From: an uncultured Amphritea sp.
GTDB taxonomy: Bacteria > Pseudomonadota > Gammaproteobacteria > Pseudomonadales > Balneatricaceae
Length of the DNA stretch: 64,000 nt
Assembly (NCBI RefSeq): GCF_937127095.1
Contig: NZ_CAKZLP010000059.1
Coordinates: 1,128 to 65,127 of the forward strand
Direction of reading: 5' to 3'
Shown: one piece after another, positions 1-17,564 of the stretch
Position numbering within the stretch: the first letter of the stretch is position 1
Layout: every line of letters begins with the position of its first letter
Translations under genes and position numbers: made by a program
Notes under the pieces: generated by a model
Databases searched by the model: none
What the model was told of the DNA's origin: nothing
Seen by the model: the letters and a program-made list of their open reading frames with translations, nothing else

Positions 1-20
1 TCCGCGCGACCTGTGCGCTG

Positions 21-1184
21 ATGCGCTCGATTCATGAGCTATTCTGGGCGTTGATTTTTTTGCAGTTTTTTGGTCTTCATCCGCTAACGGGTTTGCTGGC
101 GATCGCGGTTCCTTATGCAGGTGTTTTTGCCCGCATGTATGCGGAGATTCTTGATCAGGCTCCAAAACAGCCCACCGATGCCTTGCCCGCAGGCAGTGGT
201 TTTCTCAGTGCGTTGCTGTTTACCCGTTTACCGCAGGCCTGGCCCCATCTGGTCAGTTACACCTCATATCGTCTTGAGTGTGGTATTCGCAGTAGCGCGA
301 TTTTGGGCTTCGTCGGACTGCCTACGCTTGGATACTATCTGGAATCCTCCTTTTCTCAGGGATATTACCCTGAGGTTGCGGCGTTGATGATTCTGTTTTA
401 TCTGTTAATTGCGACCAAAAAATTCTGGCTCAGACGCTGGACTCTGCCGTTGTTTTTACTGGGAGCGCCTTTTTTTATGGGCTCGGGGATGCCGATTATC
501 TGGGGTAATGTCGGGCGCTTCTTCTCCCAGGATATTATTCCGGCTCCTCTGCGCAGTGATGATGCAACACTGCACTCTCTGGGAGAGTGGGCTGGGACTA
601 TTTTTATTGATCAGGCGCTCCCCGGAATCTGGAATACATTACTGTTATCACAGATTGCGCTGGTGGTGACCGGATTGTGTGCGCTGCTGCTTTTTCCATT
701 GATCAGCCGTCACTGTTTTGGTCCTGCCGGACGTTTTCCTGGCCATATTTTACTGGTGGTGGCACGTTCTACCCCGGAATACCTGCTGGCATACATATTA
801 TTGCAGTTGCTGGGGCCCTCTATGCTTCCTGCGGTGATCGCGCTGGCCATTCATAATGGCGCCCTGATCGGTTATCTGACCGGGCGTAATAGCAATGAGA
901 TACAACTTAGAGCGGATGCCCCTGGCAGACGTGTCGACCGTTATTTTTATGAACTTCTGCCGCGCAGTTATCCGGCGTTTTTATCTTTTATGCTCTATCG
1001 CTGGGAAGTGATTATGCGGGAGACCGCTATCCTCGGAATTCTGGGCATTCAAACCATCGGTTTTTATGTTGATAGCGCGATCCAGGAGATCCGCTTCGAT
1101 GTTGCCCTGCTGCTGATTCTGATTGCTGCGATGATGAATATCCTGGTTGACCTTTTGTCCCGCAGGATTCAGCAGCGCTTCTGA
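21..1184 (+). CDS. PhnE/PtxC-family ABC transporter permease (two permease repeats), probably 5'-truncated by the window edge
   Basis: Repeated YRLECGIRSSAILGFVG / YRWEVIMRETAILGILG motifs typical of PhnE-type permeases; frame stays open upstream to base 3. Confidence 0.8.
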   Translation: MRSIHELFWALIFLQFFGLHPLTGLLAIAVPYAGVFARMYAEILDQAPKQPTDALPAGSGFLSALLFTRLPQAWPHLVSYTSYRLECGIRSSAILGFVGLPTLGYYLESSFSQGYYPEVAALMILFYLLIATKKFWLRRWTLPLFLLGAPFFMGSGMPIIWGNVGRFFSQDIIPAPLRSDDATLHSLGEWAGTIFIDQALPGIWNTLLLSQIALVVTGLCALLLFPLISRHCFGPAGRFPGHILLVVARSTPEYLLAYILLQLLGPSMLPAVIALAIHNGALIGYLTGRNSNEIQLRADAPGRRVDRYFYELLPRSYPAFLSFMLYRWEVIMRETAILGILGIQTIGFYVDSAIQEIRFDVALLLILIAAMMNILVDLLSRRIQQRF

Positions 1185-1553
1185 CGTTAGTCTCTCATTC
1201 AGCCCATTCCGGGGCTTTTCGAATGCAACGGTTTACAGAGTTCTATTTTGAATATCATCTCCATGATGGTGCGATTGACAGCATCGTTAGCCGAATGCTG
1301 TCGCCGTTTTGGGTATCTCATTATTTGATTTGTTGTGTGAGCAGATGGTAGATTGCTGCTCAAATAATAATTTAAACACTTGTTTGGTTTTTTTTGTCAT
1401 CTTTGAATTGACCCTGGTAGAACCTCTTCTATGTCAGAAACGTTTGTTCCGTTTCGGCCGGTGTCAGGGTGTTTCACAAGCTGTAATCCCGGCAGACCCG
1501 CTCAGGTCAGGTCAGGATTTGAAATACCTAATCAACGCTATCGGGAACCTGAA

Positions 1554-2705
1554 ATGAAATTAGTTCCGTTTGTGAAGTACACGTCATGCGGTAATAACTT
1601 TGTTATTGTTGATGCAACGGAGCAACCTCTGCTCTCCGAGGCTGAGATGTCGCGGTTTGCTTTTCAGGCGACCAATACCAGCTTTGGCGTCGGCTGCGAT
1701 AACCTGCTGGTTATTCAGCGTTGCAGTGTCGAAGTATTAAAGTCGATTGCTGATTCAAGAGGTTATTGGCACCGGCAGCCGGAAGCCGATCAGGCAGATT
1801 ATCTGTTTCGCATGTTTGAGCCGGATGGTGAAGAAGCTTTGTGTTGCGGTAATGGCTTAATGTGTGTTGCCAGTCATCTTTTGAATCAGCATGGTGTGTT
1901 TTCTGCCTCTATCCTGACGGAAATTCCCTTACATACCCCGAAAGTTATTCAGATTGGTGCGGGAAGTGATCAGCAGGGCGGCTGGGTTAATCTCGGACAC
2001 CCGCGCCGAACACCGGTTGAACTGGCTGCGTTTGGGCACTCACTTGCCTTCAGTCCGAATATTGACCTTTACCCGGAGATCATTATCCGCTTTCGTGCAG
2101 GTGATCTGCGTAATGTCGGCAATGCAACCCAACTGAAAATCAAAGCGCATCTGGTGTTTACCGGTGAACCCCATTTAGTGATCTTTCCGGATATTGATTT
2201 CTCCATCCCTGAACTGGCCGATTACATTTTCAGCAGTTCTGACCAGTGGCCAGTCAAAGATCGCCGTGAAAGTTTTGGTACCTGGCTGGTGGAGCATATC
2301 GGACAGTACCTTAATAACCACTATAAAACGTTATTTCCCGCCGGTATTAATGTCAATCTGGCTCGTCAACAAAGCTCCCGCGTGATTGAGAATCGCTGTT
2401 TTGAGCGGGGAATAAACAGGGAAACCCTTGCCTGCGGTACCGGCGCATTGGGTGTCGCTTATGTTTATAGTCAGATAAATCAGCTGGATTTGGATGAGAT
2501 TGATGTTCTGCCACACCGTTGCCGTTGGCACGACAAACAGGCGCAGATTCGAATACATCGCACTGATAGCGGGTGGTCGCTGGCAAGTGGCCCTGTGCTG
2601 CTGTTTGATGGGGTTTATCGGTTGTTATCTGTCAGTCATCCGGTGGTTGAACACCTCTCTGCTCAGCAGGATGACCCGGCTGAGCTTAAAAGGCTGACCT
2701 CATGA
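1554..2705 (+). CDS. DapF-like (PLP-independent) amino-acid racemase/epimerase, ~383 aa with insertions
   Basis: KYTSCGNNF, GVGCDNLLV, CCGNG (catalytic Cys 1), GEPH, ERGINRETLACGTG (catalytic Cys 2); similarity begins at ATG 1554, not 1431. Confidence 0.8.
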   Translation: MKLVPFVKYTSCGNNFVIVDATEQPLLSEAEMSRFAFQATNTSFGVGCDNLLVIQRCSVEVLKSIADSRGYWHRQPEADQADYLFRMFEPDGEEALCCGNGLMCVASHLLNQHGVFSASILTEIPLHTPKVIQIGAGSDQQGGWVNLGHPRRTPVELAAFGHSLAFSPNIDLYPEIIIRFRAGDLRNVGNATQLKIKAHLVFTGEPHLVIFPDIDFSIPELADYIFSSSDQWPVKDRRESFGTWLVEHIGQYLNNHYKTLFPAGINVNLARQQSSRVIENRCFERGINRETLACGTGALGVAYVYSQINQLDLDEIDVLPHRCRWHDKQAQIRIHRTDSGWSLASGPVLLFDGVYRLLSVSHPVVEHLSAQQDDPAELKRLTS

Positions 2706-4366
2706 GGGATAATTTAAGCGATGCCGGACCGATCAGACGGCTGTTCGCTGGCGGCCTGCAGCTGTGGTGTGTGCAGGCACTGGCGGTTTTTCTGCTGTTT
2801 GCCGCCTATCAGCGCGGGGAATTTGATATCCAGTTAAAATCGATAGCGGGTTGGGGGGCCGCTGCGACGCTGGTCTCAACGCTGTTATTGATGCTTGTGC
2901 TGCTCTACCGCCGTCATATGAACCCTCTGAGCGGTAGAGATGTCAGTCGGCTGATGATAGGGCTGAGTAGCGTTTCACTACTGTTACTTAGTTTGCAGCA
3001 TGTCTGGTTTGGTAATGTTGACCTCAATTTGTTTGATCTGGCGACGGTTATATTAATTTCGTTTCTGGTGTCACTGGAACTGGCTGTGTTGCAACAGAGC
3101 CGCTGCCGTTACCAGCTGCAGGGTTCTGAACGTTATAAGCAGATGCGGCCAGCGATCTTCCTGTTTTTGTTTGGCATCGATCTGTCGATGGCGTTTATTC
3201 CGTTGCATATGGAAGCGCTGCCCCGCAGTTTTAGCGGATTCAGTCCGGACCTGTTGATCGGCTTGCCGATATCGGTTGAGTTTTTCTGCGTTGGCGTTGC
3301 GATTTTGTTGTGTGGTGTGTGGCTGGACAAACAGGGTTGGAAGCCTCCGTTTTATACCGGCCTTGCTCTGACCGGGCTGGGCTGTCTCTATTCCTGGTTG
3401 GCACCCGATGCCGTGCAGTTCATTCTCTCCCGGGGGATATTAGGGTTCGGTTATGGTCTGACGTTGTTAGCGTCCCAGAGTTACGTTATTCGGCAAACGG
3501 ATAATCGGAATAAATCCCGGGGGCTGGCGCATCTGTTTGCCGGGCTCTACTCCGGCAGTATATGTGGTGCCGCCACCGGAGCTGTTCTCGCCGATCAGTT
3601 TGGTTATGGCCCGGTATTTCTGCTGGGTGCCTTTATCGTGTTCAGCGTGATGCTCTATGGCCGGTTAGTGCTGACGCCGGTCCCGGTTGCCCCGAAATCG
3701 CCGGACGTGCAGCAGACAGACAGTGTAACACCGCGCACAGCGACCTCCTTTATCAGGTTTCTCGGTGATCGTCAGGTATTGGCGGCGGTGCTGTTCAGTA
3801 GTATGCCCGCGTCAATCGCGGTGGTCGGTTTTCTTAACTATTTTAGTCCGGTTTACCTTAACCGGGCTGGGGTTGATGATGCCTCCATTGGTCAGGTGCT
3901 GATGCTGTTTGGCGTGATTCTCGCACTATTTGGCCCTGCTATCGGCCGTTTTGCTGATCTGAGTGAAACGAAGCGCATCCCGATCATCCTCGGCTGTCTG
4001 CTGGGTGGTTTAGCTTTTATGGTTTTCACTGTATTTGATGGGGTTATGGCGGTTACTCTGGCGATTCTGTTGCTGGGGCTTTCCAACTGTCTGGTGTTAT
4101 CTTCCCAGAGCGCGTTTGTCCTGAAGCAGCCGGTTACCACCGAGTATGGTGAGGGTAAGTCGATGGGGATATTCCGTTCCAGCAGCCGCATCGGCCAGAT
4201 GCTCGGCCCCGTGTTGTTTGCCAGCATAATAGCCATGGCTGATATCGAATACGGAGTGATGCTGTTTGGTGCGGCCTATCTGATTACAGCGGTTCTGTTT
4301 GCTGTGCTTACCTGGGCGCCAAAGGTTCGAATGACCTCTCAGGTTAAGGCCGTTTCTAATGAATAA
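2702..4366 (+). CDS. MFS transporter with an extra N-terminal membrane segment (~145 aa)
   Basis: 12-TM MFS pattern from MRPAIFLFLFGIDLSMAF; motif-A-like GVWLDKQGWK and GRFADLSETKR; ATGA overlap with the upstream gene. Confidence 0.85.
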   Translation: MRDNLSDAGPIRRLFAGGLQLWCVQALAVFLLFAAYQRGEFDIQLKSIAGWGAAATLVSTLLLMLVLLYRRHMNPLSGRDVSRLMIGLSSVSLLLLSLQHVWFGNVDLNLFDLATVILISFLVSLELAVLQQSRCRYQLQGSERYKQMRPAIFLFLFGIDLSMAFIPLHMEALPRSFSGFSPDLLIGLPISVEFFCVGVAILLCGVWLDKQGWKPPFYTGLALTGLGCLYSWLAPDAVQFILSRGILGFGYGLTLLASQSYVIRQTDNRNKSRGLAHLFAGLYSGSICGAATGAVLADQFGYGPVFLLGAFIVFSVMLYGRLVLTPVPVAPKSPDVQQTDSVTPRTATSFIRFLGDRQVLAAVLFSSMPASIAVVGFLNYFSPVYLNRAGVDDASIGQVLMLFGVILALFGPAIGRFADLSETKRIPIILGCLLGGLAFMVFTVFDGVMAVTLAILLLGLSNCLVLSSQSAFVLKQPVTTEYGEGKSMGIFRSSSRIGQMLGPVLFASIIAMADIEYGVMLFGAAYLITAVLFAVLTWAPKVRMTSQVKAVSNE

Positions 4367-5933
4367 CCGGCAGGTCGCTCCAGCGATGGGTATGGCTCAG
4401 CAGTTGCTCAACACGGTGCGTAAACAGGTTCCGGTGGTTGACAGGGTGTTGACGTCATCCGGTGATTGTTCGGTGTCTGAATATCTTCAGCAGATCTGTG
4501 AAGTCAGTCAGCAGAGTTATCAGTCGCGCTCAGATGTGGCTGAAGTGATGTACGAATATATAGCTCCTCTGTTGGGTGAACAGATGGCAGAACGTGCTGC
4601 CGCCGATTTTCTGCAACATCCGGTTGCACTGACAACCAACCATCATGGGGTTGATTTTTTTGCCCAGTCGGTTCAGGGCAGCTTGCTATTTGGGCTGGCT
4701 AAACGGCAGATTGAAGGGGTGACTACCATCCCGGTATTTTCCTGTGCGAATATCCCTCTGGATAATATTACCTATCCCCGAGGGGCTCTGCTTTATGGCT
4801 GTGATAGCAATGGGGCTAACTGGCCATTAAGGGTGCCTCTGTTTTCCAATAAGCTGAGGCGTCAACCGGTCGCGCGGGTTAAAGGGCTTGACCGGTCGAT
4901 GATACAGCAGGCGGCTAAGCGGGTGCGTGGAATGGTGGAAAAAGCGCTGAATCCTGTGCTGTTTGAGACGTTGCTGAACCTTCTGGAGAGTGAATATCTG
5001 GCTGAAGATGTGGTGTCGCAGAAGCGCTACTCTGCCCAATCTGTGATCTTAAACCAGCGTATCTGGACTCGACTCTTCTGCTCCTCTGCTACTATGCCTG
5101 ATCTGGTGACTATTGAGCTGGAGAAGCTGGCCGAAGGGTTATTGCTTAAAGACCTGCAGCACGATAACAGTCTTGCCTCGGTGTTATTTGCCGGGCCGCT
5201 GATAACAACGCTCTTCCAACGACTGGATACTATTTCCGGATGCTGGAGCCGGACGTTGCTGGAACAGCGTTGGGCCGACAGGCATTCAGCCGAACCGCTG
5301 AAAACGTCGGCTTGTGGCACCTTTGGTTTCTGGGGTGTTGATAGTCGTTTTCGCCGGATTCCACTGATGTTAAGTGAACGGTTGGGTCAGCCAATATTAT
5401 TAGGCTGTGATGATAATGGTGAGGAGTATCACTATAGCCTGGAGCCCACGGCGCTTTCTCAGGCTTTGCGTGATGGGCGGCTAATGCCCTCGGTGTTCAG
5501 CTGTTTTCTGGTTATCGCGCTGGCACGGGGAGTGACCTGTTTGGGGGGGTATTATCAGGCAGAGTATCTGCCGCAGATGCAGACGGGTGTTGCTGAGGTG
5601 TTGCAGCAGCATGATCTGGCTGAACTAGCAGTGCAGATTTCAGCGAGTGTTACCGACAGTTATCTATCGGGTATGCAGGCGATTATGGTTGCAGAGGCTG
5701 ATACTTTGTTGCCAGCGGGGCTGGTTGAGATACTGAGCAGTGGTGCAATCACCGCGGCGGAGCTTGAGTTGATCGCAAATATCAATCTGCGTGATGCGCA
5801 TTACGCCTCACTGGCAGAAACCGTCGCTGATGTTATGCCGACCGGGCAATTGGGAGACCACTGGCTTAAGCCATTGATGATAGATCAGTGGGATTTACTT
5901 TCAGCGAAAGTCGCTTTAAGACGGCTGAGTTAA
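4359..5933 (+). CDS. Uncharacterised 524-aa soluble protein, possibly a distant BshC-like/HUP-fold ligase
   Basis: Long ORF with host-like codon use overlapping the MFS stop; motifs LTTNHHG, IPVFSCAN, RLMPSV...LGGYYQAEYLPQ; functional call is by-eye inference. Confidence 0.5.
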   Translation: MNNRQVAPAMGMAQQLLNTVRKQVPVVDRVLTSSGDCSVSEYLQQICEVSQQSYQSRSDVAEVMYEYIAPLLGEQMAERAAADFLQHPVALTTNHHGVDFFAQSVQGSLLFGLAKRQIEGVTTIPVFSCANIPLDNITYPRGALLYGCDSNGANWPLRVPLFSNKLRRQPVARVKGLDRSMIQQAAKRVRGMVEKALNPVLFETLLNLLESEYLAEDVVSQKRYSAQSVILNQRIWTRLFCSSATMPDLVTIELEKLAEGLLLKDLQHDNSLASVLFAGPLITTLFQRLDTISGCWSRTLLEQRWADRHSAEPLKTSACGTFGFWGVDSRFRRIPLMLSERLGQPILLGCDDNGEEYHYSLEPTALSQALRDGRLMPSVFSCFLVIALARGVTCLGGYYQAEYLPQMQTGVAEVLQQHDLAELAVQISASVTDSYLSGMQAIMVAEADTLLPAGLVEILSSGAITAAELELIANINLRDAHYASLAETVADVMPTGQLGDHWLKPLMIDQWDLLSAKVALRRLS

Positions 5934-5998
5934 TGTTATTCTGTTTTAAACGGGCGTATACAAAAAAATAATGTTCCTGTAAGCGTATAGGAGAGGAT

Positions 5999-7147
5999 AT
6001 GCGATCTATTAAGTATTTTGGTCTGGTGTTGCTCTGGCTGTTAATCATGCCTGTAGCCCAGGCAGGTGACAAAGGGATCTTTTCAACCGCACCGGTGACG
6101 CATAACGGTGAGCGTTGGAGAATCGGTTATTTTGAGGGTGGCGAGTATGTCGACTATCAGAAAATACTGGTCGAAACCGTCAAAGGGTTGATGCAGCTGG
6201 GCTGGATTAAAAAAACAGAAATCCCCGCACAGCAAGGGGAGCAGACAGATCAGTTATGGCAATGGCTGCAGCAGGGGGTGCAAAGTGAATATGTTGAATT
6301 TGTCGCAGATGCCCACTATTCCGCGCAGTGGGACGAAACCACACGTGCCCAGCTAACTGAGACGGTTATTGATCGTCTCAATCAGGGAGATATCGACCTG
6401 ATGATCGCGATGGGGACATGGGCAGGTAAATCTCTGTCTAATGACCGCCACCATACTCCGACAATGGTTTTATCCACCAGTGATCCGCTGTCCAGCGGGA
6501 TAATCAAAAGTGTTAGCGATTCAGGGTATGACCATGTTCATGCCACGGCTGATCCTAACCGTTATGACCGCCAGGTGAGGGTTTTTGATGATATCGTCAA
6601 CTTCAAAAAACTCGGTGTTGCTTATGAAGACACCAAAAATGGGCGCAGTTACGCTGCCCTGGATGTAATTGAAAAACTGAGCCGCGAGCGGGGCTTCGAA
6701 GTTGTTGGCTGTCACACACTGAGTGATATTAGTGACACTGCTCGCGCTGAGGCGAGTGTAGTGAGTTGTTTTCGTAAACTGGCATCAGAGGCTGACGCTA
6801 TCTATGTGACCGTGCAGGGAGGAGTGAACGGAAATAGTATTGGTCAGTTGGTCAAAATTGCCAATGAATATCGGGTGCCAACCTTTTCACAGTCCGGCTC
6901 TGAAGAGGTAAAAAAAGGATTGTTGCTGAGTCTGTCCCAGGCGGGATTCCGCTATGTGGGTGAATTTCACGCATCTACATTTGCTAAAGTATTTAACGGC
7001 GCTCTGCCTAATCAACTGACGCAGCTGTTTGAAGAACCACCGCGCATGGCGGTAAATCTGAAAACGGCTGAGATCGTTGGTTTTAATCCGCCGTTACTGC
7101 TGCTGGGTGCCGCGGATGAGGTCTACCGGGAAATTCCTGCAGAATAA
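5999..7147 (+). CDS. Periplasmic ABC-type substrate-binding protein (ABC_sub_bind-like), copy 1
   Basis: Signal peptide ending VAQA; WRIGYFEGGEY, AMGTWAG, DPNRYDRQV, GRSYA, VNLKTAEIVG. Confidence 0.8.
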   Translation: MRSIKYFGLVLLWLLIMPVAQAGDKGIFSTAPVTHNGERWRIGYFEGGEYVDYQKILVETVKGLMQLGWIKKTEIPAQQGEQTDQLWQWLQQGVQSEYVEFVADAHYSAQWDETTRAQLTETVIDRLNQGDIDLMIAMGTWAGKSLSNDRHHTPTMVLSTSDPLSSGIIKSVSDSGYDHVHATADPNRYDRQVRVFDDIVNFKKLGVAYEDTKNGRSYAALDVIEKLSRERGFEVVGCHTLSDISDTARAEASVVSCFRKLASEADAIYVTVQGGVNGNSIGQLVKIANEYRVPTFSQSGSEEVKKGLLLSLSQAGFRYVGEFHASTFAKVFNGALPNQLTQLFEEPPRMAVNLKTAEIVGFNPPLLLLGAADEVYREIPAE

Positions 7148-7174
7148 AGCCATATCAAGGACATAGTACTGGCG

Positions 7175-8332
7175 ATGATAGTTAAACGAGGAAAGAAGAG
7201 GCTGTGTGCCTGGCTGGCAGGGATGCTTTTGCTACTGTCAGGGGTTGCGCTTCATGGGGCCGAGTTGGGTGACGCTCCTATGCTTAATCAAGGCCAGAAA
7301 TGGCGTGTGGCCTACTATCAGGGGGGCGAATATTATGATTATTACCAATATCTGAAGGCCACTGCTGAGGGGTTGATGGCACGGGGGTGGATCGCTCCAC
7401 AGACTATTCCCAATGAGCTGACAACCGCCTGGGATCTGTGGCATTGGCTAACAGAGACTGCGCATAGCGATTACCTTGAGTTTCTGTCGGATGGTTTTTA
7501 TAGCGCAGGCTGGGACCGGGGCTATCGGGTGGAGTTGCATGAACGGGTTATAACCCGGTTAAATCAGCATGGAGAGGTCGACTTGCTGTTAGCCATGGGC
7601 AGTTGGGCGGGGGTCGATATGGCCGTTGATCGTCACTCTGTTCCGACCATGGTGGTGTCTGTTAACGATCCCCGCAGTTTAGGTCTTATTCGTGATCAGG
7701 GGGAGGCCTATGAGCATATCTATGTTACCGAGGACCCACAGCGTTATGAGCGCCAGGTCTCCCTGTTTCACGACCTTATTCGCTTTAAAGCTCTGGGGGT
7801 CGCCTATGAAGACAGCTTTGAAGGCAGAAGTTACGCTTCAATTGAGATGATCGAGAGGTTAGCTCAAGAAAGAGGCTTCAAAGTGATTAGCTGCTTCACC
7901 CAAAGTGATGTAACCGATCAGGAGCAGGCTAACGATTCGGTGATTGGCTGTTTCAGCGATCTCGCCGAGCGGGTCGATGCGCTCTATGTGACGACACAGG
8001 GTGGGGTTAATGATGAAACCATTCCTGTGCTGGTGGAGATTGCTAATCAGCATCGTATTCCAACTTTTTCACAGTATGGTCAGCGTGAAGTGAAACAGGG
8101 GTATCTGATGAGCCTGTCGCAGTCCGAAGGGTTTATAGATGAGGGCAAGATACTCTCTGATGTTGCAATACGTATCTTGAAGGGCGCCGAGCCTGCGTCA
8201 TTAGAGAATCATTCGGCAGAGGCAAACCGGATAACCCTTAACCTGAAAACGGCAGAGCAGATTGGGCTTTACCTGAATGCAGAACTTTTAGCCGCAGCTG
8301 ACCAGCTTTACTGGCAAATAGAGCAACCTTGA
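7175..8332 (+). CDS. Periplasmic ABC-type substrate-binding protein, paralogous copy 2
   Basis: Signal peptide; WRVAYYQGGEY, AMGSWAG, DPQRYERQV, GRSYA, LNLKTAEQIG align with copy 1. Confidence 0.8.
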   Translation: MIVKRGKKRLCAWLAGMLLLLSGVALHGAELGDAPMLNQGQKWRVAYYQGGEYYDYYQYLKATAEGLMARGWIAPQTIPNELTTAWDLWHWLTETAHSDYLEFLSDGFYSAGWDRGYRVELHERVITRLNQHGEVDLLLAMGSWAGVDMAVDRHSVPTMVVSVNDPRSLGLIRDQGEAYEHIYVTEDPQRYERQVSLFHDLIRFKALGVAYEDSFEGRSYASIEMIERLAQERGFKVISCFTQSDVTDQEQANDSVIGCFSDLAERVDALYVTTQGGVNDETIPVLVEIANQHRIPTFSQYGQREVKQGYLMSLSQSEGFIDEGKILSDVAIRILKGAEPASLENHSAEANRITLNLKTAEQIGLYLNAELLAAADQLYWQIEQP

Positions 8333-8341
8333 GTACTGAGT

Positions 8342-11203
8342 ATGTTGTCCAGTTTCAAATTTAAAATTATCGCCCTGATTGTTGCAGTGCTGTTGTGTAC
8401 TGCAGCCGGGGTGATGTATTTCACCCAGCGGGATGTGGGGCAGGCGATGCTGGTGGCAGAGCAGAAATCTGCGCGCAACGTGCTGCAGCTGGCTGATCTG
8501 AATATCCGTGCCGGGTATGAGCAGCTGATCAGCGAAAAGGTAGATATTCTCAGTAAAATCAAAGCGGATATGCGTCAGTTGACACGTCTGGGACAGACGG
8601 TTCTGGATAGCTATGCCGGGGTCTCGGCGAAGGGTCTGCTCAGTGAAGATGCTGCTAAAGAGATTGCTCGCCAATGGCTGTCGGATGTGACGTTTAATAA
8701 TGGTGACCTGATCCTGTTTGGTGGGGATGGGGTTATTGTGGGGTCAACTGATTCGAAGCTTACCGATACCTCGATAGCGGGTTTGCGAGACCTTAAGGGA
8801 CGCCAGATACATCAGGCGATGCGTTTTGACCAGTTAAAACCTGAGGGTGACAGCGGTATCTTTTTCTGGCACAAGCCCGGTGAGCCCGAGGGCGGGCGGT
8901 ATATGGGCTATTTTCTTCCGTTAGCAAACTGGGGCTGGACCATGGGGATCATTGTCAGCTTTGCGGATGTCGAGGAGGAGAGCCAGAAACAGATGAACCG
9001 TATTGTGGATGCGCTGCGTCTGACCTTCAATAAACTTCAGGTTGCTGAGACTGGCTATGCAATTCTGTTTACGGGAGATCGAAAAATACTGATTGAGCCT
9101 CCCAGACAGACTCTGAGTGAAACGATTTCGACGGATGATCTCGACTGGAATAAAGCGGGGGTACTGGAGCAGATTATTGCCGCGGATAAACGGGGGGCCG
9201 ACTCTGTCAGCCATCAGAGTGCGTTTACCGGGGGGCGGCAGGTACAGATTTTCTTCAGTTATTTTAAAGCGTTTGACTGGTATTCCGCAGTGGTGGTGCC
9301 GGTTGAAGAGATTGCGGCACCGGGTCGGGCGGTGGTGGCTCAGCAGAGCCTGATTATCGGATTGATATTTCTGGCCAGTATCAGTGCTGCGTTTATTCTT
9401 GTTTTCCGCATGGCAGCACCGCTTAATAGTCTGGCATCTTATGCCAAATCACTGCCTGATCAGGATTTTATTCGTCCCGGCGAACAGAGTCAGAAAATAC
9501 TCAGGCTGGCACGGAAAAACCCCGATGAGATTGGCCGTCTGGCAGAATCATTTCTGTTTATGGAAAAGGCGATCAGGTGCACCATTCAACAGGTGCATAA
9601 AGAGAAAGAGATTGCGATTGATGCCAGTAAAGCGAAAAGTGAGTTTCTGGCAACCATGAGTCATGAGATCCGTACGCCGATGAATGGTGTGCTGGGAATG
9701 ACCGATCTGGTGCTGGATACCGATCTGACCAATGAGCAACGACGCTTTATACAGATGATTCGCTATTCCGGCGAAGGTTTGCTGGAGATCATCAATGACA
9801 TTCTCGATTTCTCCAAAATTGAAGCGGGGAAATTGCATCTGGATTACCGGCCACTGAATCTGGCCGAGCTGATTCAGACTCAGGTTGCAATTCTTAATCT
9901 TCAGGCGCAAAAGAAGGGGCTGACTCTGACCTGTAATCTGCCCCCTGAGCTGAACATCGTTATCATAGGCGATACTGTCAGGTTGCGTCAGGTGCTCACC
10001 AACCTGATCGGTAATGCGATTAAATTTACCCGGGATGGCTCAATTAAAGTCACCGCGGTGGTGTTTGAAGAGACCGATCAGGATATCTCTTTTCAGCTAC
10101 GGGTTGCGGATACCGGTGTGGGCATCTCCCCTGAACATCAGAGTATGATTTTTGAATCCTTTGCTCAGGCTGATAACACCACAACGAGAAACTATGGTGG
10201 CACCGGGCTCGGCTTGGCGATCTCTCGACAGCTGATTGAGATGATGGGTGGGTCGATAGATTTTTCCAGCGAGCCGGGTCGAGGCACCACCTTCTGGTTT
10301 GGTTTGAAGCTAGCGAAAACTGACCTGCTGCCTGAATCGGAACTGTCTGAGCTTGAGCCCCTGTCTGCCCAGGGGGGTATTGAGGGGCATATACTGCTGG
10401 TAGAGGATCATCCTGTAAATCAGGAGTATGCACTGCAGACCCTCAGAGGATTAGGTGTAGGTGTTGATCTCGCCGCAAATGGAGTGCAGGCGTTAAAGAT
10501 GATCTGCGAGAATGACTATCAGCTGGTGTTGATGGATTGTCAGATGCCGGAGATGGATGGCTATCAGGCGACCACCGAGATTCGCAAACGGGAAGCCACG
10601 GAGCAACGTCCCCGTCTACCGGTTATCGCGCTCACCGCGAATGCGATGGCGGATGACCGTCAGCGTTGTCTGCAAGCGGGGATGGATGACTATCTGGCAA
10701 AACCGTTTGATAAACAACAGATTACGCATATTCTCAAACACTGGTTGCCGAAGAGTGTAACGGACGATACCGGTGTTACCTCCACCGAGGCTGATCACCC
10801 GATTAGCTATACCGACCGGCCGTTTTCCCTCGATAAAGCGGTCATCGATGAACATGTGATATCGCAGCTAATTGAGATGGATGCTAATGGTGCTTTTCTG
10901 CGCAAAATTATTGATGCCTATCTGGAAAAATCCCCTGATGATCTGAGTCGCTTGACAGTCGCATTGTCAGAGCAGAATCCTGAGATGCTGAGAGTTGCTG
11001 CACATAGTTTCAAATCCAGTAGTTATAACCTTGGTGCGACGACGCTGGCGGAGCTATGTAAAGCGTTGGAAAAGGTTGGCCGGGATGGGGTGCTGGAGCA
11101 GGCGCCAGTATTGTTGCAAGAGATAGAGAGTGAGTATCAGAAGGCCGAACAGATATTGATGACCATCAGACAGACAGAAGGCGCGCATGACGGACGTAAA
11201 TGA
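8342..11203 (+). CDS. Hybrid sensor histidine kinase (TM-Cache-TM-HAMP-HisKA-HATPase-REC-Hpt)
   Basis: H-box [55 protein letters not shown], Hpt AAHSFKSSS. Confidence 0.92.
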
Positions 11204-13436
11204 TAACAGGCCGACCCCGTTCCGGGTGCTGGTGGTTGATGATGATCTCACCGCCCGGATACTGGCCACCCACTCACTCGAACAAGAGGGGTTTGAGGTT
11301 CTGTTAGCGGATAATGGCGTTATTGCGCTGCAGACCTTTCAGGAGGCACAACCAGATATTGTTCTGATGGATGTGGAGATGCCGGGTCTTAACGGCTTTG
11401 ATGTCTGTCGTCAGTTGCGCAGTATGCCCTGTGGAAAATTGGTGCCGATTCTGATGGCAACTGGCCAGGATGATATCGATTCCGTCCGGCAGGCCTATGC
11501 TGCCGGAGCCACCGATTTTGTCTCAAAACCCTTCAACTGGAAGGTGCTCGGACACCGTCTCAATTATATGATTCGTGCCAGCAATACTACTGAACAGTTG
11601 CGCCAGTTGCAGAAGAGTGAAACGCGCCTGGGTAATGCTCAGCGGATTGCCCGGCTGGGCAACTGGGAGTGGCATCTGAAAAGCGGGGAGATCTACTGGT
11701 CGGATCAGTTTTACCAACTGCTGGGTGGTAAACGGGGGCGGACTCAGACCGGTATGCGCACCTTTTTACGTTGTGTTCCTGCGAATGAAAGGCCGCAGCT
11801 ACGACACTGGTTCAAACAACTGCTGAACTGTCGTTACTCCGGCTTTATGTCCGGGATTAATCACAGTATCAGTCTGGCCGGGCAGGATGTTAAGAATGTA
11901 CAGCATCAGGCTGAGGTTTTTTGTGATGATCAGGGCAATGCCACGATTATTGCCGGAACTATGCTGGATGTGTCTGAGCTGAAGCGGGCACAGGATCAGG
12001 TACTGAAACTGGCGCGATTCGACAGCCTGACAGGCCTGTCAAACCGCAGTGTCTTCTGTGATCGGGTGCAGTTGGCAATCGATCAGGCCGAACGCAGAGG
12101 AGGCCTTGGCGCAGTACTGTTTCTTGATCTGGATAATTTTAAGCGAATTAACGATACCTTTGGTCACGGCATTGGTGATCTGTTATTGCAGGAGGTGGCA
12201 CAACGATTGACGCAAAGTGTTCGTTATACCGACCGGATCAGTGATGACTCAGACGCGGGTGCTGCTGAGCAAACCGATTTAGACCACCGTGTTGATCTGT
12301 ACACGCACAATAAAGATCGGCAGGTCCGGGTCCCACTGGTGGCCCGGTTTGGCGGTGATGAGTTTACCGTTTTGCTACCGGAGATTAATCAGATTCGGGA
12401 TGCTGAAAATGTTGCCCGCAGGGTTCTCGAATCGATAGGCCTTTCAATTGACCTTGCCGGTCATGAGGTGGTGATTACTCCCAGCATTGGCATCGCTATA
12501 TTTCCCCATCATGGGGAAAACGTAGACAGCCTGATGAAAAACGTCGACGCCGCTATGTATTATGTAAAGCATACGGGTAAAAATGGCTATGAGCTGTTTG
12601 TGAAGTCGATGAATGTCGTGGCTAAGCGTCGGCTGGAACTGGAAAGTCATCTGCGTCATGCCATTGAAACGAATGAGTTGTCACTTAACTATCAGCCTCA
12701 GGTTGATATGCGCAGCGGTAGAATCGTCGGGGTTGAAGCTCTGCTGCGCTGGAACAGCCTCCAGCTGGGTTTTGTCTCGCCGGTTGAGTTTATTCCCATC
12801 GCGGAAGAAACCGGACTGATTACTCCTATTGGCGAATGGGTGATGCGTGAAGCCTGTCGGCAAACCCGGCAGTGGCAACTGGACGGGCTGCCGCACATCC
12901 GGGTGGCGGTTAACCTGTCCGTGCGTCAGTTTGCCAAGCAAAACCTGGAAAAACTGGTGAGTCAGGTGTTGCAGGACACGGGCTTGCCAGTTAACTGTCT
13001 GGAGCTTGAGATCACTGAAAACATGCTGATGGATGATGTTGAAGGGTCAGTTGAGACTCTGCACCGCTTAAAAGCGCTGGGTGTGCAGCTGGCGATAGAT
13101 GATTTTGGCACCGGCTATTCCAGTCTCAGCTATCTGAAGCGCTTTCCTATCGACCGGTTAAAAGTGGACCGCTCTTTTATTACCCATGTGACCACAGACC
13201 CCGGCGATGCCTCGGTCACTCAGGCGATTATCGCCGTGGCTCATAATCTGGGGTTGAGCGTTACGGCAGAGGGTGTGGAGGAAGAGGCTCAGCTGGCTTT
13301 TCTGCAGCAATACGCCTGCGAAGAGGTGCAAGGGTTCCTGTTCAGTAAACCGCTCAAGGCGGATGATCTGGCCACGTTGCTCAGAACCACCAACGGCTAT
13401 ATGTCACTCAAAACCGCGAGGACCACTGAGGACTAG
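11187..13436 (+). CDS. REC-PAS-GGDEF-EAL c-di-GMP enzyme (response regulator)
   Basis: [18 protein letters not shown]; ARFGGDEF; VEALLRW; [10 protein letters not shown]; ~35-aa acidic insertion before GGDEF. Confidence 0.92.
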
Positions 13437-13634
13437 GCTCCGCTGCTTTGTCACTGTGGACAGAAGCAATACCCCCAGCGTTTCTGTCCATTCATAATTT
13501 TTACTATCCTATTACCACTCTCCACCCCTGTGTTTTCGTTATTTTCTCCTGTTTATCACGTAATTATTCGTTTTTAACGCTTCATTCAAAATAGCCAGTC
13601 TACACTGTCTTTAAACAATAAAATAAAGGTGGTG

Positions 13635-13885
13635 ATGAGCTATCTCATCTTGCCAGTGCTTCTCTGACAATGTTTTCCCCTACCTCCAGGATAGTGTAGA
13701 TCCTGATTATGCGGTTGAGCTGGTGAAACAGAGCTTAATTATTTTATTTGGTCAGCTATTAGCTCTGCATTCGGTAATCAGTCGTAGCCGGGTACTGGAA
13801 CTGGAGCAGAATTACCGTTGAGGTACAGGTATTTCATTGGGATGGGCACATCAATGTCTATGTATTTGATGCGGTAAGCTGTTGA
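13635..13885 (+). pseudogene. Frameshifted PepSY-domain protein remnant (BqsP/Q-like)
   Basis: Pieces in three frames: MSYLILPVLL; DSVDPDYAVELVKQSLI...SRVLELEQNYR*; EVQVFHWDGHINVYVFDAVSC*. Confidence 0.55.
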
Positions 13886-13909
13886 GCAACGATAAGGAGA
13901 GTCATCGTC

Positions 13910-14023
13910 ATGCGTGTTCCTGACTTTGATAATAATGCCCGGGAGTTACAGTACTTTCTTGCGCACTGTACTCAATCCGGTTGGAGGGACAACCGTTTGC
14001 AGGCAGAAGGACTAGTATCATGA
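13910..14023 (+). pseudogene. 37-aa ORF, probable remnant of a deleted response regulator
   Basis: AAGGAG RBS; MRVPDFDNNARELQYFLAHCTQSGW loosely resembles a REC N-terminus; its TGA overlaps the kinase ATG (ATGA 14020-14023). Confidence 0.4.
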
Positions 14024-15384
14024 TTTCGGTTGGGCAGTCTCTGGAGCAGCAGATTCGGCGAGGGCTGATGATCCTTATGCTACCGGCGTTTGTCTGTCTG
14101 CTGTTGTTGCTGCATCTGACGATGAACCGCATCACCGATGAATATGTCGGCTCCCGGCTGGGAGATGATGTCGAAAATATCATCACTGCACTGAAGTGGA
14201 CGGATAAGGGGTGGCAGGTCGATGACCACCAGGTTCCCGAAGCGTTCAAGCGTGTCAAAAGTGGTCATTACTTTGTGGTGCGTTGGGATGGCGGACAGTT
14301 ACGTTCCCGCAGTCTGTGGGATACCACTCCTGACGTTGAACTACTCCCTCTGGGCAGGCAACAACAGTTTCAGGTTCCCGGGGTTGGTGAGGAACGGTGG
14401 ATGGTGTGGCAGCAGGGCGTTCGCAAAGAGGAACGGGACTTTAGCATCTGGGTCGCTGAAGATATTACCTCGTTTATCGCTATACAGCGTGACTATGAAT
14501 ATTCCCTGCTGACCATCTTAGTCGGTTTAAGCCTGTTGATCATGTTGCTGCAACGGCGCATTTTACACTGGGGGTTTGCCACGCTTAAACCGATGCAAAC
14601 CGCTTTGTTGCGGGGAAAAATTGACGGTGCGCTTAATTTGCCGAAAGGGGTGCCGGTGGAAGTTCAGCCCCTGGCGGATGCGATTGAACGTCTGGTTGAT
14701 CATTCCAGGAAGCAGTTAAGCCGTTCACGAACCGCAACCAGCAATCTGGCCCATGAATTAAAACTGCCACTTCAGCATCTTCAACTGCTGGCTGCCGCGA
14801 CAGAGGTTGAGGATAACCGCGACAGCCTGCAGCAGATATATACTCAGCTACAGCGGCGTATTGATGGCGAGTTACGACGTGCGAAAATTTCCGGTTCTCC
14901 AGCACCGGTCGATCTGTTCAATCCTCAGGAGGAGCTGCCTTATCTGGTGCAGCTATTAAATCGAAAGCGGGAGGGCGATGCGATCGAGCTGGTGCAGCAT
15001 ATTCCGGAGTTTGCTATTCCGTTTGACCGGGATGATATGTTGGAACTGGTGGGCAACCTGCTGGATAATGCCTGGCAGCATGCTAACTCCAGAGTGTTGC
15101 TGAGTATCAGGGAGAGTCATGGCTTCTGGACCATTATCGTCAGCGATGATGGTCCGGGTATTGCGCCGGAAAAGATTAAGGCGATGACTCTGAATGATTA
15201 TCGGGAAGATACCCCGGAGGGTGATAATTATGCGCTGGGGTTATCCATATGCCGTGCAGTCGTGAGCAGCTATGGTGGAAAAATGCAGTTGCATGCGGCA
15301 CGTTTAGGTGGGTTGCAGGTTATTATCGATATTCCTCTGTCGGGTAGTGAACCCACGGAAGATGACGATAAGAGCGCAGAATAA
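14020..15384 (+). CDS. Orphan sensor histidine kinase (BqsS/CarS/QseC-like) with degenerate G2 box
   Basis: RSRSLWD periplasmic motif, NLAHELKLPL, GNLLDNA, DDGPGI; G2 reads NYALGL. Confidence 0.8.
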   Translation: MISVGQSLEQQIRRGLMILMLPAFVCLLLLLHLTMNRITDEYVGSRLGDDVENIITALKWTDKGWQVDDHQVPEAFKRVKSGHYFVVRWDGGQLRSRSLWDTTPDVELLPLGRQQQFQVPGVGEERWMVWQQGVRKEERDFSIWVAEDITSFIAIQRDYEYSLLTILVGLSLLIMLLQRRILHWGFATLKPMQTALLRGKIDGALNLPKGVPVEVQPLADAIERLVDHSRKQLSRSRTATSNLAHELKLPLQHLQLLAAATEVEDNRDSLQQIYTQLQRRIDGELRRAKISGSPAPVDLFNPQEELPYLVQLLNRKREGDAIELVQHIPEFAIPFDRDDMLELVGNLLDNAWQHANSRVLLSIRESHGFWTIIVSDDGPGIAPEKIKAMTLNDYREDTPEGDNYALGLSICRAVVSSYGGKMQLHAARLGGLQVIIDIPLSGSEPTEDDDKSAE

Positions 15385-15434
15385 AGTGTCTATGTTTAGC
15401 CTTTGTTATCTTTATATCTGGCGGCTGCTTTTTT

Positions 15435-16304: not shown

Positions 16305-16373
16305 TGTTACATTTTCGTAAAAGTATATTGATAAAGCGCTAGATTATATTGTTTCTATTAACAACTACAATAG

Positions 16374-17564
<1,191 letters not shown>

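Follow-up and report, generated by a model that had tools for sequence, protein, structure and literature searches.

Seven genes at positions 1554–13436 of our window, the whole 64,000-nucleotide stretch of an Amphritea genome that was analyzed, raise the question of whether two enzymes and a transporter make and release the molecule that the neighboring binding proteins and kinase sense. ORF calling placed all seven on the forward strand (Table 1). A preliminary description had proposed such a circuit, with closely packed genes. Its junctions were reproduced exactly (an ATGA overlap at 2702, an 8-bp overlap at 4359, and a 17-bp overlap at 11187), and ORF coordinates and junction sequences returned the same gaps of 65, 27, and 9 bp. 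The first ORF ends at 2705 and has alternative starts at 1431 and 1554, of which the latter (MKLVPFVKYTSCGNNF) aligns with DapF N-termini. The best explanation is that the seven genes form one operon of two separable halves acting on the same small molecule.

Table 1. Features of the operon and its leader, with window coordinates.
Feature	Position	Strand	Basis
Candidate promoter	1325..1354	+	Inside conserved upstream block, ~200 nt 5' of first gene
DapF-fold PLP-independent amino-acid racemase/epimerase, 383 aa	1554..2705	+	PF01678 DAP_epimerase, 65 bits
MFS permease, 554 aa	2702..4366	+	MFS_1 at residues 151-476
524-aa cytoplasmic protein, undescribed family	4359..5933	+	No domain or fold match
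SBP1, periplasmic PF04392 ABC_sub_bind protein	5999..7147	+	PF04392 match, signal peptide
SBP2, SBP1 paralogue, PF04392	7175..8332	+	PF04392 match, signal peptide
Hybrid sensor kinase TM-dCache_2-TM-HisKA-HATPase-REC-Hpt	8342..11203	+	Pfam, TM helices, phospho-site motifs
Response regulator REC-PAS-GGDEF-EAL	11187..13436	+	Pfam and NCBIfam

In 10 Amphritea loci, an upstream block (TTATTTGATTT..GATGGTAGATTGCTGCTCA..ATAATTTAAAC) is kept 5' of the first gene, and within it lies a candidate promoter. This comprises a -35 element (TTGATT, 1325–1330), an 18-nt spacer, and an extended -10 element (TGG-TAGATT, 1346–1354), which together are a weak consensus match and were not among the sites listed by the promoter scan. 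A sigma-54 promoter was rejected by inspection, since the GG-GC spacing of the conserved TGGTAGATTGCTGC is wrong and the extended -10 fits better. No riboswitch or other known RNA was found in the 370-bp leader or the rest of positions 1–16500. A promoter-like site also lies within the 65-bp gap 5' of SBP1. In a marine metatranscriptome, short contigs with at least 99% identity cover five operon genes and the SBP1/SBP2 junction; this is a single dataset of very low depth with possible DNA carry-over, too little to prove co-transcription of all seven genes. Two downstream genes were considered and set aside as members of the unit: a kinase gene (13981–15384) found in one Amphritea subclade only, and a LysR gene (15435–16304) that is a conserved flank even at sites without the cluster. 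The upstream phnE is part of a phosphonate transporter.

We compared 41 long loci, each with at least 8 kb on either side of a homologue of the 524-aa protein. An MFS gene was present in 39, a racemase in 39, an SBP in 38, and an orthologous dCache domain in 36, figures that are conditional on the 524-aa protein through which the loci were gathered; the reverse test covers one family. The co-occurrence of enzyme/MFS genes with sensing genes in other genomes, on which the preliminary description had staked its reading, was borne out: 31 of the 41 loci combine a racemase, MFS, PF04392 SBP, orthologous dCache kinase, and c-di-GMP regulator, in rearranged orders. Gene order and strand vary, with the kinase upstream or downstream and on either strand. 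The loci come chiefly from Gammaproteobacteria and several families of Thermodesulfobacteriota, and include Oceanospirillaceae, Psychromonadaceae, Hahellaceae, Competibacteraceae, and Chromatiaceae; variant forms occur in Moduliflexota and Bacillota. Carriers in culture include Amphritea species, Marinobacterium jannaschii, and Hahella, as well as Psychromonas ingrahamii, recognized by its epimerase homologue. Because the grouping is conserved in other genomes, it is not a product of chance, and the enzyme and sensing halves are probably coupled in function.

By its model scores, the first gene product is a DapF paralogue and not the cell's diaminopimelate epimerase. It fell below the cut-off of the DapF equivalog model TIGR00652 (108.6 versus 114.65 bits), and a whole-genome search gave it 103 bits versus 312.8 bits for the true DapF, which lies on another contig. 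The window protein and 13 relatives keep both catalytic cysteine motifs, CGNG and ACGTG (ETLACGTGA). Two residues of DapF, N64 and N157, are replaced by Glu in the operon racemase, and Q44 by Asn; all aligned cluster members read RMFEPDG for RIFNADG and GEPH for GNPH. In DapF, N64 and N157 (Haemophilus numbering) are the asparagines in contact with the distal carboxylate of diaminopimelate. With its acidic distal pocket, the operon racemase may act on a substrate with a basic side chain. Its PDB sequence matches include O-ureidoserine racemase.

In other genomes, the DapF-like enzyme is joined to REC, EAL, or MFS domains. Epimerase-EAL fusions form at least five protein clusters, and two of them sit in canonical gene clusters with an MFS, a 538-aa homologue, SBPs, and a dCache kinase. 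The epimerase-REC fusion (L013/P0365) and the epimerase-MFS fusion are single cases from metagenome bins. Short pathways with a comparable first enzyme are known: CntK (staphylopine) and DcsC (D-cycloserine) are likewise two-cysteine PLP-independent racemases that supply a D-amino acid to a product that leaves the cell, and CntK is accompanied by an MFS exporter. However, CntL/CntM and DcsG are unrelated to the 524-aa partner, and neither pathway owns a sensing module.

The 524-aa protein had no sequence match in Pfam, NCBIfam, or the PDB, the last searched with both the single sequence and a profile. No shared Pfam family was matched among 21 members of its family at E-values up to 10. AlphaFold2 produced a model with a pLDDT of 89 and a pTM of 0.90; when it was compared with the PDB in Foldseek, the best match had E = 0.32, with none below 0.3. 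The label of putative ligase that this protein had carried is a guess that gained no support: no known ligase fold was matched, and the protein is not BshC-like; homology to BshC (bacillithiol cysteine ligase) was ruled out by sequence, profile, and fold searches. The family comprises 1125 clusters at 50% identity and has 58 invariant columns, including NHHG, GGYYQxEY, C129, C394, H481, and D491.

Its genomic partners were more informative. In 37 of the 41 long loci, the epimerase gene lies directly 5' of the MFS and 524-aa genes, in fixed order with ends overlapping or abutting. An alanine racemase replaces the DapF-like gene in L053, and an Ala_racemase_N protein does so in L040, L050, L065, and L070; the L040 homologue had no record with an identical sequence. 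P0241 and P0249 are themselves fusions of alanine racemase with the 524-aa domain, and after P0249 come a PF04392 SBP and an MFS with the N-terminal domain. Remoter homologues adjoin Asp/Glu racemases or MR/MLE epimerases, so the partners span DapF-fold, PLP alanine (neighboring or fused), Asp/Glu, and MR/MLE types. Across these loci, racemization appears to be the constant of the cluster, and the 524-aa protein, by the same comparison, is a racemase-partnered enzyme. The family is constantly partnered by racemases, of at least four and probably five unrelated types, and we therefore propose that it acts on D-amino acids. The earlier suggestion of a D-residue in the compound is strongly backed by these replacements and fusions. 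That its chemistry involves an amide bond to the D-amino acid is a guess.

Whether the pathway builds a compound or dismantles one is suggested by the remaining neighbors, which point in both directions. A SAM methyltransferase gene lies inside the cluster in five loci (L022, L027, L032, L041, and L094), P0250 joins another to the 524-aa domain, and a homologue paired with an Asp/Glu racemase was found in a polysaccharide synthesis locus. These, with a LysE gene near one epimerase-EAL/kinase locus, are hints of biosynthesis. Other homologues adjoin M20 or M29 peptidases or lie in polysaccharide-utilization-like loci with TonB receptors, PL14 lyase, and esterases, which suggests breakdown rather than synthesis.

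Together with the MR/MLE neighbors, the peptidase and polysaccharide-utilization settings favor a different account of the operon, which we regard as a serious competitor, though a less likely one: that it senses and takes up an outside ligand, such as a D-amino-acid conjugate that other organisms release. SBP1 would deliver the ligand to the MFS, with the N-terminal domain of the latter as a docking adaptor, and would also report it to the dCache kinase. The 524-aa enzyme would cleave or convert the compound, the racemase would return the D-amino acid to the L pool, and c-di-GMP would adjust attachment or motility toward the source. However, two enzymes alone would not reach central metabolism unless their product were a common amino acid, and the five clusters with a methyltransferase and the REC and EAL fusions of the racemase fit control of a first biosynthetic step better than salvage. 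Catabolic operons are usually induced by their own substrate, and no transcription factor was conserved in the cluster among the annotated loci, which also speaks against uptake.

The transporter bears on the same choice. Hydropathy indicates three extra N-terminal TM helices before the MFS_1 core. Most MFS relatives instead carry an N-terminal membrane domain of 430–500 aa with two large loops, and this domain, reminiscent of the small subunits in TRAP and TTT transporters, favors uptake. The Amphritea protein has lost those large loops, which counts against it, as does the need for an SBP-dependent MFS importer, of which we know no example. The MFS core is 52% identical to its L044 homologue, and the N-terminal part is unconserved. 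With one or two exceptions, loci that contain the MFS gene have it directly 5' of the 524-aa gene; the order differs in L053 and L087. No PDB relatives of the core from which a direction of transport could be inferred were found, inspection of the alignment showed no antiporter motif C, and NCBIfam returned only weak matches, exporters and importers mixed. On the reading of a self-made signal, the MFS would export the compound.

The two binding proteins match PF04392 at 55.5 and 69.8 bits (cut-off 25.9) and are 47% identical to each other. In a phylogenetic tree, SBP1 formed a clade with 100/100 support and SBP2 a separate clade of 42 rows, also with 100/100 support; by this tree, the two are ancient paralogues, of which SBP2 evolves faster. 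Conservation within the cluster is highest in SBP1 (55–67% identity across phyla), as expected if the ligand were a fixed external one, and SBP1 is the one part common to full, sensor-only, and kinase-less (enzyme-only) loci; both points favor uptake. SBP2 was found only in loci with the dCache kinase, wherever the flanks were long enough to tell. Binding proteins with such a dual use, in transport and sensing, are well known from MBP/Tar and ChvE/VirA. The PDB relatives of SBP1 are 3lkv, 6hni, and 3lft, and in their family the ligand of solved members is L-Trp, L-Tyr, or L-Phe (PMC10443332).

The operon encodes neither a permease nor an ATPase of a matching ABC type, and no conserved ABC component appeared among the annotated neighbors in related loci. 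All three PF04392 proteins of the genome adjoin sensor kinases, and none adjoins an ABC permease. The binding proteins are thus orphans, as the preliminary description had it, that travel with the kinase and not with an ABC transporter, and both would bind the hybrid kinase. This distribution also bears on the idea that the locus merely juxtaposes a metabolic operon and an ordinary two-component c-di-GMP system, with SBPs that serve an ABC transporter elsewhere. The ability of the halves to exist apart and the promoter-like site before SBP1 are in keeping with that idea. Nevertheless, the linkage holds across phyla despite rearrangement, the racemase carries fused REC and EAL domains, no PF04392 protein of the genome stands beside an ABC permease, and the promoter block of the full operon is kept in a species that has SBP1 alone. 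We disfavor two unrelated neighbors and consider them highly improbable.

The kinase has TM helices at residues 9–27 and 337–355 that enclose a periplasmic dCache_2 domain, and orthologues of this periplasmic domain were found at full length and 30–96% identity in 36 of the 41 long loci. The signaling motifs are intact. They comprise the H-box SHEIRTP, the N and G boxes, the REC aspartate in LMDCQMP, and the Hpt motif HSFKSS in the kinase, and GGDEF at 389, EAL at 517, DDFGTGYSS at 638, and EGVE at 695 in the regulator, which is translationally coupled to the kinase gene by the 17-bp overlap. The regulator lacks an RxxD I-site and carries an insert of ~35 aa within the GGDEF domain. It is predicted to make and/or break c-di-GMP, all GGDEF-EAL motifs being present; the sign of the response is likewise a prediction. 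A c-di-GMP output, which the preliminary description had also proposed, persists in distant taxa through other domain architectures: L013, L022, L027, L032, and L073 encode REC3-GGDEF with GGDEF-REC-HD-GYP or REC-HD-GYP. To judge from these loci, the output is conserved in function, not in architecture. An NtrC-type output was discarded as a general feature, as it was present in one locus only (L017).

Variant loci show how the halves come apart. At the same site, the three metabolic genes are missing from two Amphritea species, whose order is phnE-SBP1-kinase-regulator-LysR, and in another Amphritea variant, SBP1 stands alone directly behind the same promoter block. SBP1 accompanies the MFS and 524-aa genes without a dCache kinase in L040, L042, L053, L065, and L070. 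The epimerase-MFS-524-aa block is gained and lost as a unit, apart from SBP1-kinase-regulator. The single circuit proposed earlier therefore stands in part: the halves are co-conserved, but they are separable, as both sensor-only and enzyme-only loci exist. Producers with eavesdroppers and one SBP that serves both uptake and sensing would explain this separability equally well.

The locus with the LysE gene combines this exporter with an epimerase-EAL protein, dCache kinase, regulator, and SBP, and has neither MFS nor 524-aa gene. Such a set would suit an Lsr-like cycle of making, sensing, and retrieving, in which the racemase alone makes a free D-amino acid signal that leaves by another exporter, the SBPs and kinase sense it, and the MFS and 524-aa enzyme re-import and inactivate it to close the signaling window. 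The independent coming and going of the metabolic block is compatible with that cycle. However, the fixed gene order in 37 of the 41 loci suggests a single pathway, and the LysE adjacency is one case, with an unrelated gene between LysE and the regulator. We consider the Lsr-like cycle improbable.

Weighing these observations, we regard a self-made, exported signal as the best single reading, at a little less than even confidence; the sensed ligand would then be produced by the cell itself. The receptor-only Amphritea relatives, the fusions of racemase to signaling domains, and the lack of an ABC partner would count in its favor. SBP1 in loci without a dCache kinase and the large N-terminal domain of most MFS relatives would fit an SBP-assisted importer and count against export. 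A cytoplasmic two-cysteine DapF-fold racemase would convert an L-amino acid to the D form, the 524-aa enzyme would convert this amino acid into, or from, a derivative, and the MFS would move the compound across the inner membrane. In the periplasm, SBP1 and SBP2 would bind it and then dock on the kinase at its dCache_2 domain, and a His-Asp-His relay through the kinase REC and Hpt domains would phosphorylate the REC-PAS-GGDEF-EAL protein and shift c-di-GMP. The likeliest direction would be from making through export to sensing, in an autocrine or paracrine circuit akin to Rpf/DSF and LuxPQ. Direct feedback of the signaling pathway on the racemase may exist in some lineages.

The preliminary description could match the locus to no described system, and our search agrees: the searchable literature gave no account of this gene cluster, with only a survey of SBP ligands bearing on its parts. 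The nearest relatives share portions of it. In LuxP/LuxQ, which senses AI-2 in Vibrio, a hybrid kinase with a double PAS/Cache-type periplasmic part likewise learns of a small molecule through a periplasmic binding protein, and the two genes are adjacent, as here. In contrast, the Amphritea operon has PF04392 rather than LuxP-type proteins, two ancient paralogues rather than one, an Hpt domain fused to the kinase, a c-di-GMP output instead of LuxU/LuxO, and candidate synthesis genes in the same operon; the kinase reached 324 bits with the LuxQ model NF041947, whose cut-off is 1200. The Rpf/DSF cluster of Xanthomonas (RpfF, RpfC, and RpfG) also combines an enzyme that makes the signal, a REC- and Hpt-containing hybrid kinase, and a response regulator for c-di-GMP turnover, and distant versions of the present cluster share its use of REC-HD-GYP. 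However, it has no binding protein and its fatty-acid signal is made by a crotonase, whereas here a racemase, a protein without a fold match, and a transporter are found. In the NspS/MbaA system of Vibrio cholerae, norspermidine, an amine that the cell makes itself, is relayed to c-di-GMP turnover by an orphan binding protein in the periplasm; it differs in that the target of NspS is a membrane GGDEF-EAL protein, reached directly and without a kinase relay, the protein families are others, and the synthesis genes lie elsewhere. TorT/TorS pairs a binding protein with a hybrid kinase containing REC and Hpt, as here, and for the cytoplasmic part of the kinase no named model scored higher than the TorS model TIGR02956 (436 bits against a cut-off of 676.5, over residues 419–937 only). 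The TorS periplasmic domain is not of the Cache type, however, and the system responds to TMAO and acts through the DNA-binding regulator TorR.

The fullest form of our proposal, which we advance tentatively and with some doubt, is an unrecognized cross-phylum signal: a D-amino-acid derivative made by a racemase and a new-fold enzyme, exported by the MFS, and read by SBP1 (with SBP2) and the dCache kinase into c-di-GMP, with both producers and receptor-only listeners. Release of D-amino acids has long been suspected of regulating biofilms. If the circuit is autocrine, that release would gain a defined receptor and a link to c-di-GMP, and bacterial quorum sensing would be extended by signals of a new chemical class and by a new family of synthases. 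If uptake is the true function, it would instead hold the first binding-protein-dependent MFS transporter. With culturable carriers and natural sensor-only relatives at hand, the question is directly testable. Whatever the direction of transport, the locus points to a large family of proteins without a known fold (~1100 clusters at 50% identity) and would give PF04392 binding proteins a role in signaling.

ORF calling exactly reproduced the seven adjoining plus-strand genes and the junctions claimed in the preliminary description, and the phospho-acceptor and catalytic motifs of the kinase and regulator are intact. We prefer position 1554 as the start of the epimerase gene because MKLVPFVKYTSCGNNF lines up with the N-termini of DapF. 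The source is an Amphritea species (Oceanospirillaceae), and near homologues of the window proteins all come from Amphritea. The gene upstream of the operon, phnE, encodes a phosphonate permease with no relation to the PF04392 proteins. The only evidence of expression comes from a single marine metatranscriptome, in the form of short contigs of near-identical sequence; one contig spans the SBP1/SBP2 junction. Within the regulator, an acidic insert separates two Pfam-matched halves of a GGDEF domain that has no RxxD inhibitory site. An extra histidine-kinase gene follows the operon. HATPase_c is its sole recognised domain, its PhoQ/QseC-like matches are weak and no response regulator gene adjoins it; it is restricted to the two-SBP Amphritea subclade and missing where LysR directly follows the regulator gene.

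Features of the operon and of related loci
Feature	Sequence	Position	Strand	Details
Candidate extended -10 promoter	window	1325-1354		within conserved upstream block
Gene 1, epimerase	window	from 1554	+	DAP_epimerase-fold protein (domain scan)
Junction	window	2702	+	4-bp ATGA overlap (ORF calling)
Gene 2, MFS	window		+	MFS_1 permease (domain scan)
Junction	window	4359	+	8-bp overlap (ORF calling)
Gene 3, 524-aa protein	window		+	no domain match (domain scan)
Gene 4, SBP1	window	5999-7147	+	PF04392, signal peptide (domain scan)
Gene 5, SBP2	window	7175-8332	+	PF04392, signal peptide (domain scan)
Gene 6, kinase	window		+	dCache_2-HisKA-HATPase-REC-Hpt; Cache domain bracketed by two TM helices (domain scan)
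Junction	window	11187	+	17-bp overlap (ORF calling)
Gene 7, regulator	window		+	REC-PAS-GGDEF-EAL (domain scan)
Intergenic gaps	window		+	65, 27 and 9 bp (ORF calling)
Acidic GGDEF insert	window	12190-12300		~35 residues, about 343-380
Extra histidine kinase	window	13981-15384	+	467 aa; 545-bp gap after operon
Third PF04392 locus	L080 (contig C10)	83-3494		
Split gene calls	L093	12025-17546		one metagenome contig
Asp/Glu racemase locus	L091	8001-11288		
Asparaginase and racemase-like genes	L070	13131-15291	-	
Polysaccharide-utilisation-like loci	L058; L059; L082	6998-19475; 5272-16671; 1-10196		

We fetched 75 genome loci through the 524-aa homologue that each encodes, searched them with every window protein, and counted components in the 41 having at least 8 kb on either side. 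The MFS gene was present in 39, any racemase in 39, a DapF-like gene in 37, at least one PF04392 protein in 38 (two or more in 32) and a full-length orthologue of the kinase periplasmic domain in 36. The complete set, with a c-di-GMP response regulator added, occurred in 31/41. The grouping is thus conserved, at frequencies conditional on the 524-aa protein through which the loci were collected. The epimerase, MFS and 524-aa genes keep a fixed order with abutting or overlapping ends; the kinase and regulator lie downstream in 23 loci and upstream in 13, on either strand. Carriers span Oceanospirillaceae, Psychromonadaceae, Hahellaceae, Competibacteraceae, Ectothiorhodospiraceae, Chromatiaceae, an Olavius symbiont and several Thermodesulfobacteriota families, with variant forms in Moduliflexota and Bacillota. 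Because its distribution is rare and patchy (1/201 sampled genomes of the order, 8/121 of the family, 6/10 of the genus), we regard the cluster as an accessory module.

The metabolic genes (epimerase, MFS and 524-aa) and the sensing genes (SBP1, SBP2, kinase and regulator) probably act on one molecule. Signal circuits classically place the synthase next to the sensor kinase. That layout here, together with the absence of a conserved transcription factor, favours an autocrine circuit, for which we would put the chances a little short of even: the metabolic half would make a compound which, once exported, would be sensed by the binding proteins and kinase, changing c-di-GMP.

A natural series at one chromosomal site in Amphritea, between phnE and a LysR gene, separates these parts. 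The site holds the full operon, SBP1-kinase-regulator alone (two species) or SBP1 alone (one species). That receptor-only relatives exist is a further point for production and sensing of a signal. A conserved block precedes the epimerase in the window and ten relatives, and in the SBP1-only species it lies directly upstream of SBP1, which argues for a single promoter driving the entire operon, the shorter forms being probable deletion derivatives. Several loci keep the MFS gene, 524-aa gene, SBP1 and racemase without the dCache kinase, three of them with other sensor proteins close by. SBP1 thus stays with the MFS even where the kinase is absent, as would suit uptake and processing of an outside compound, a reading we hold less likely but take seriously. 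Most MFS homologues also carry an extra N-terminal membrane domain of 430-500 aa with two large loops, again favouring uptake; it could dock a binding protein. A mixed, Lsr-like scheme is improbable, and we give equally little credence to readings other than those weighed here.

As judged from sequence, the window epimerase is a paralogue and not the housekeeping DapF; it scores below the DapF equivalog cut-off, and a genuine DapF gene sits on a different contig of the genome. Both catalytic cysteines are retained in it and in 13 relatives. RIFNADG is replaced by RMFEPDG and GNPH by GEPH, at positions which we take to hold the distal carboxylate of diaminopimelate in DapF, so the pocket would be acidic, pointing to a substrate whose side chain is basic. 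In locus L013 the DapF-like enzyme has a C-terminal receiver domain, and L073 joins it to the MFS. It ends in an EAL domain in at least five protein clusters, two cases lying within otherwise canonical clusters (MFS, a 538-aa homologue, one or two SBPs); the epimerase-EAL cluster of L094 adds a methyltransferase and the dCache kinase. One fused EAL domain has every catalytic motif; in two others DDFG reads DNFG or DNFA. The REC and EAL fusions suggest that in several lineages the first enzyme would be directly controlled by the same phosphorelay or second messenger. Such joining of metabolism to signalling makes two unrelated neighbours very unlikely, and we give chance adjacency almost no weight. 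The regulatory domains on the first enzyme, and a methyltransferase inside five clusters, fit the autocrine circuit.

SBP1 and SBP2 are 47% identical. Their sole solved relatives are 3lkv, 6hni and 3lft, and solved members of that family bind L-Trp, L-Tyr or L-Phe (PMC10443332). Two clades with 100/100 support make up a maximum-likelihood tree of 99 binding proteins. Each two-SBP locus contributes one protein to each clade; single-SBP loci carry the SBP1 type, except L036, a truncated contig. Among loci with flanks long enough to tell, SBP2 was seen only alongside the dCache kinase. Across phyla SBP1 keeps 55-67% identity and is the most conserved cluster protein; divergence is fastest in the 524-aa protein, SBP2 and the kinase sensor domain. 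The genome's third PF04392 protein has a TonB-dependent receptor on one side and an sCache_4-HAMP histidine kinase on the other, making it a second such binding protein with a sensor kinase partner instead of an ABC transporter.

The c-di-GMP output claimed for the operon recurs in distant clusters, where the kinase has neither REC nor Hpt and the regulators are built differently from the window's: those of L013, L022, L027, L032 and L073 are REC-REC-REC-GGDEF plus GGDEF-REC-HD-GYP or REC-HD-GYP. The output function is kept through non-orthologous parts. In L093 the dCache domain and the remaining kinase, and likewise REC-PAS and GGDEF-EAL, are separate gene calls, reflecting either a true split architecture or frameshifts of long-read assembly. 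The operon resembles LuxPQ and TorTS in pairing a binding protein with a hybrid kinase, NspS/MbaA in linking a binding protein to c-di-GMP, and Rpf/DSF in clustering synthase, hybrid kinase and c-di-GMP regulator. As first suspected, it belongs to none of these systems, its proteins falling well short of the curated model scores, and we found no account of this gene combination in the searchable literature.

The 524-aa protein has 58 invariant columns among 21 homologues (38-72% identity) and is evidently real and under strong constraint. A profile search returned 1125 family clusters at 50% identity, of which 565 had E values no higher than 1e-30. None of the 21 members matched Pfam or NCBIfam even at E = 10, and neither the single sequence nor the profile matched PDB sequences. 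The AlphaFold2 model is confident (pLDDT 89, pTM 0.90); its best Foldseek match in the PDB reached only E = 0.32. A resemblance to BshC was dropped, having no support from Pfam, NCBIfam, PDB sequences or Foldseek against the PDB.

Where the DapF-like gene is missing, other racemases appear: a PLP alanine racemase directly upstream in L053 (Bacillota), and an Ala_racemase_N protein adjoining the binding protein in L040, L050, L065 and L070. In our representative library, P0241 and P0249 fuse a complete alanine racemase to the 524-aa domain, truncated P0251 joins the tail of one to it, and another protein fuses it to a SAM methyltransferase. Downstream of one alanine racemase fusion gene come a PF04392 protein and an MFS with the N-terminal domain. 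A more distant homologue lies next to an Asp/Glu racemase within a polysaccharide synthesis locus (L091), an anabolic context that favours production of a signal; the two genes overlap, among glycosyltransferases and a Wzx-type flippase, which would fit a D-amino acid attached to glycan. Other distant homologues adjoin MR/MLE epimerases plus M20 or M29 peptidases, and paralogues beside peptidases or within degradative loci count towards uptake. The 524-aa family pairs with at least four and probably five racemase or epimerase families unrelated to one another, which is hard to explain unless it works on a D-amino acid or on some compound that contains one. Our guess, compatible with all contexts, is that it makes or breaks a D-amino acid amide bond. 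In L070, an Ala_racemase_N variant, an asparaginase gene (type I/II) neighbours the racemase-like gene and shares its strand; in L040 a lysine-2,3-aminomutase-like radical SAM gene and a canonical 329-aa PF04392 protein lie nearby. Either observation may hint at the amino acid involved.

The remotest homologues (about 30% identity) occur in L058, L059 and L082. These loci hold TonB receptors, a PL14 lyase, esterases of AXE1 type, a rhamnosidase and an HTH-cupin regulator, and lack genes for an MFS, a binding protein and a racemase. The family may play a wider part in carbohydrate-linked chemistry. We rate the circuit as of a kind already known, a binding-protein-assisted two-component c-di-GMP circuit, here with linked metabolite genes; the 524-aa enzyme family appears new in itself.
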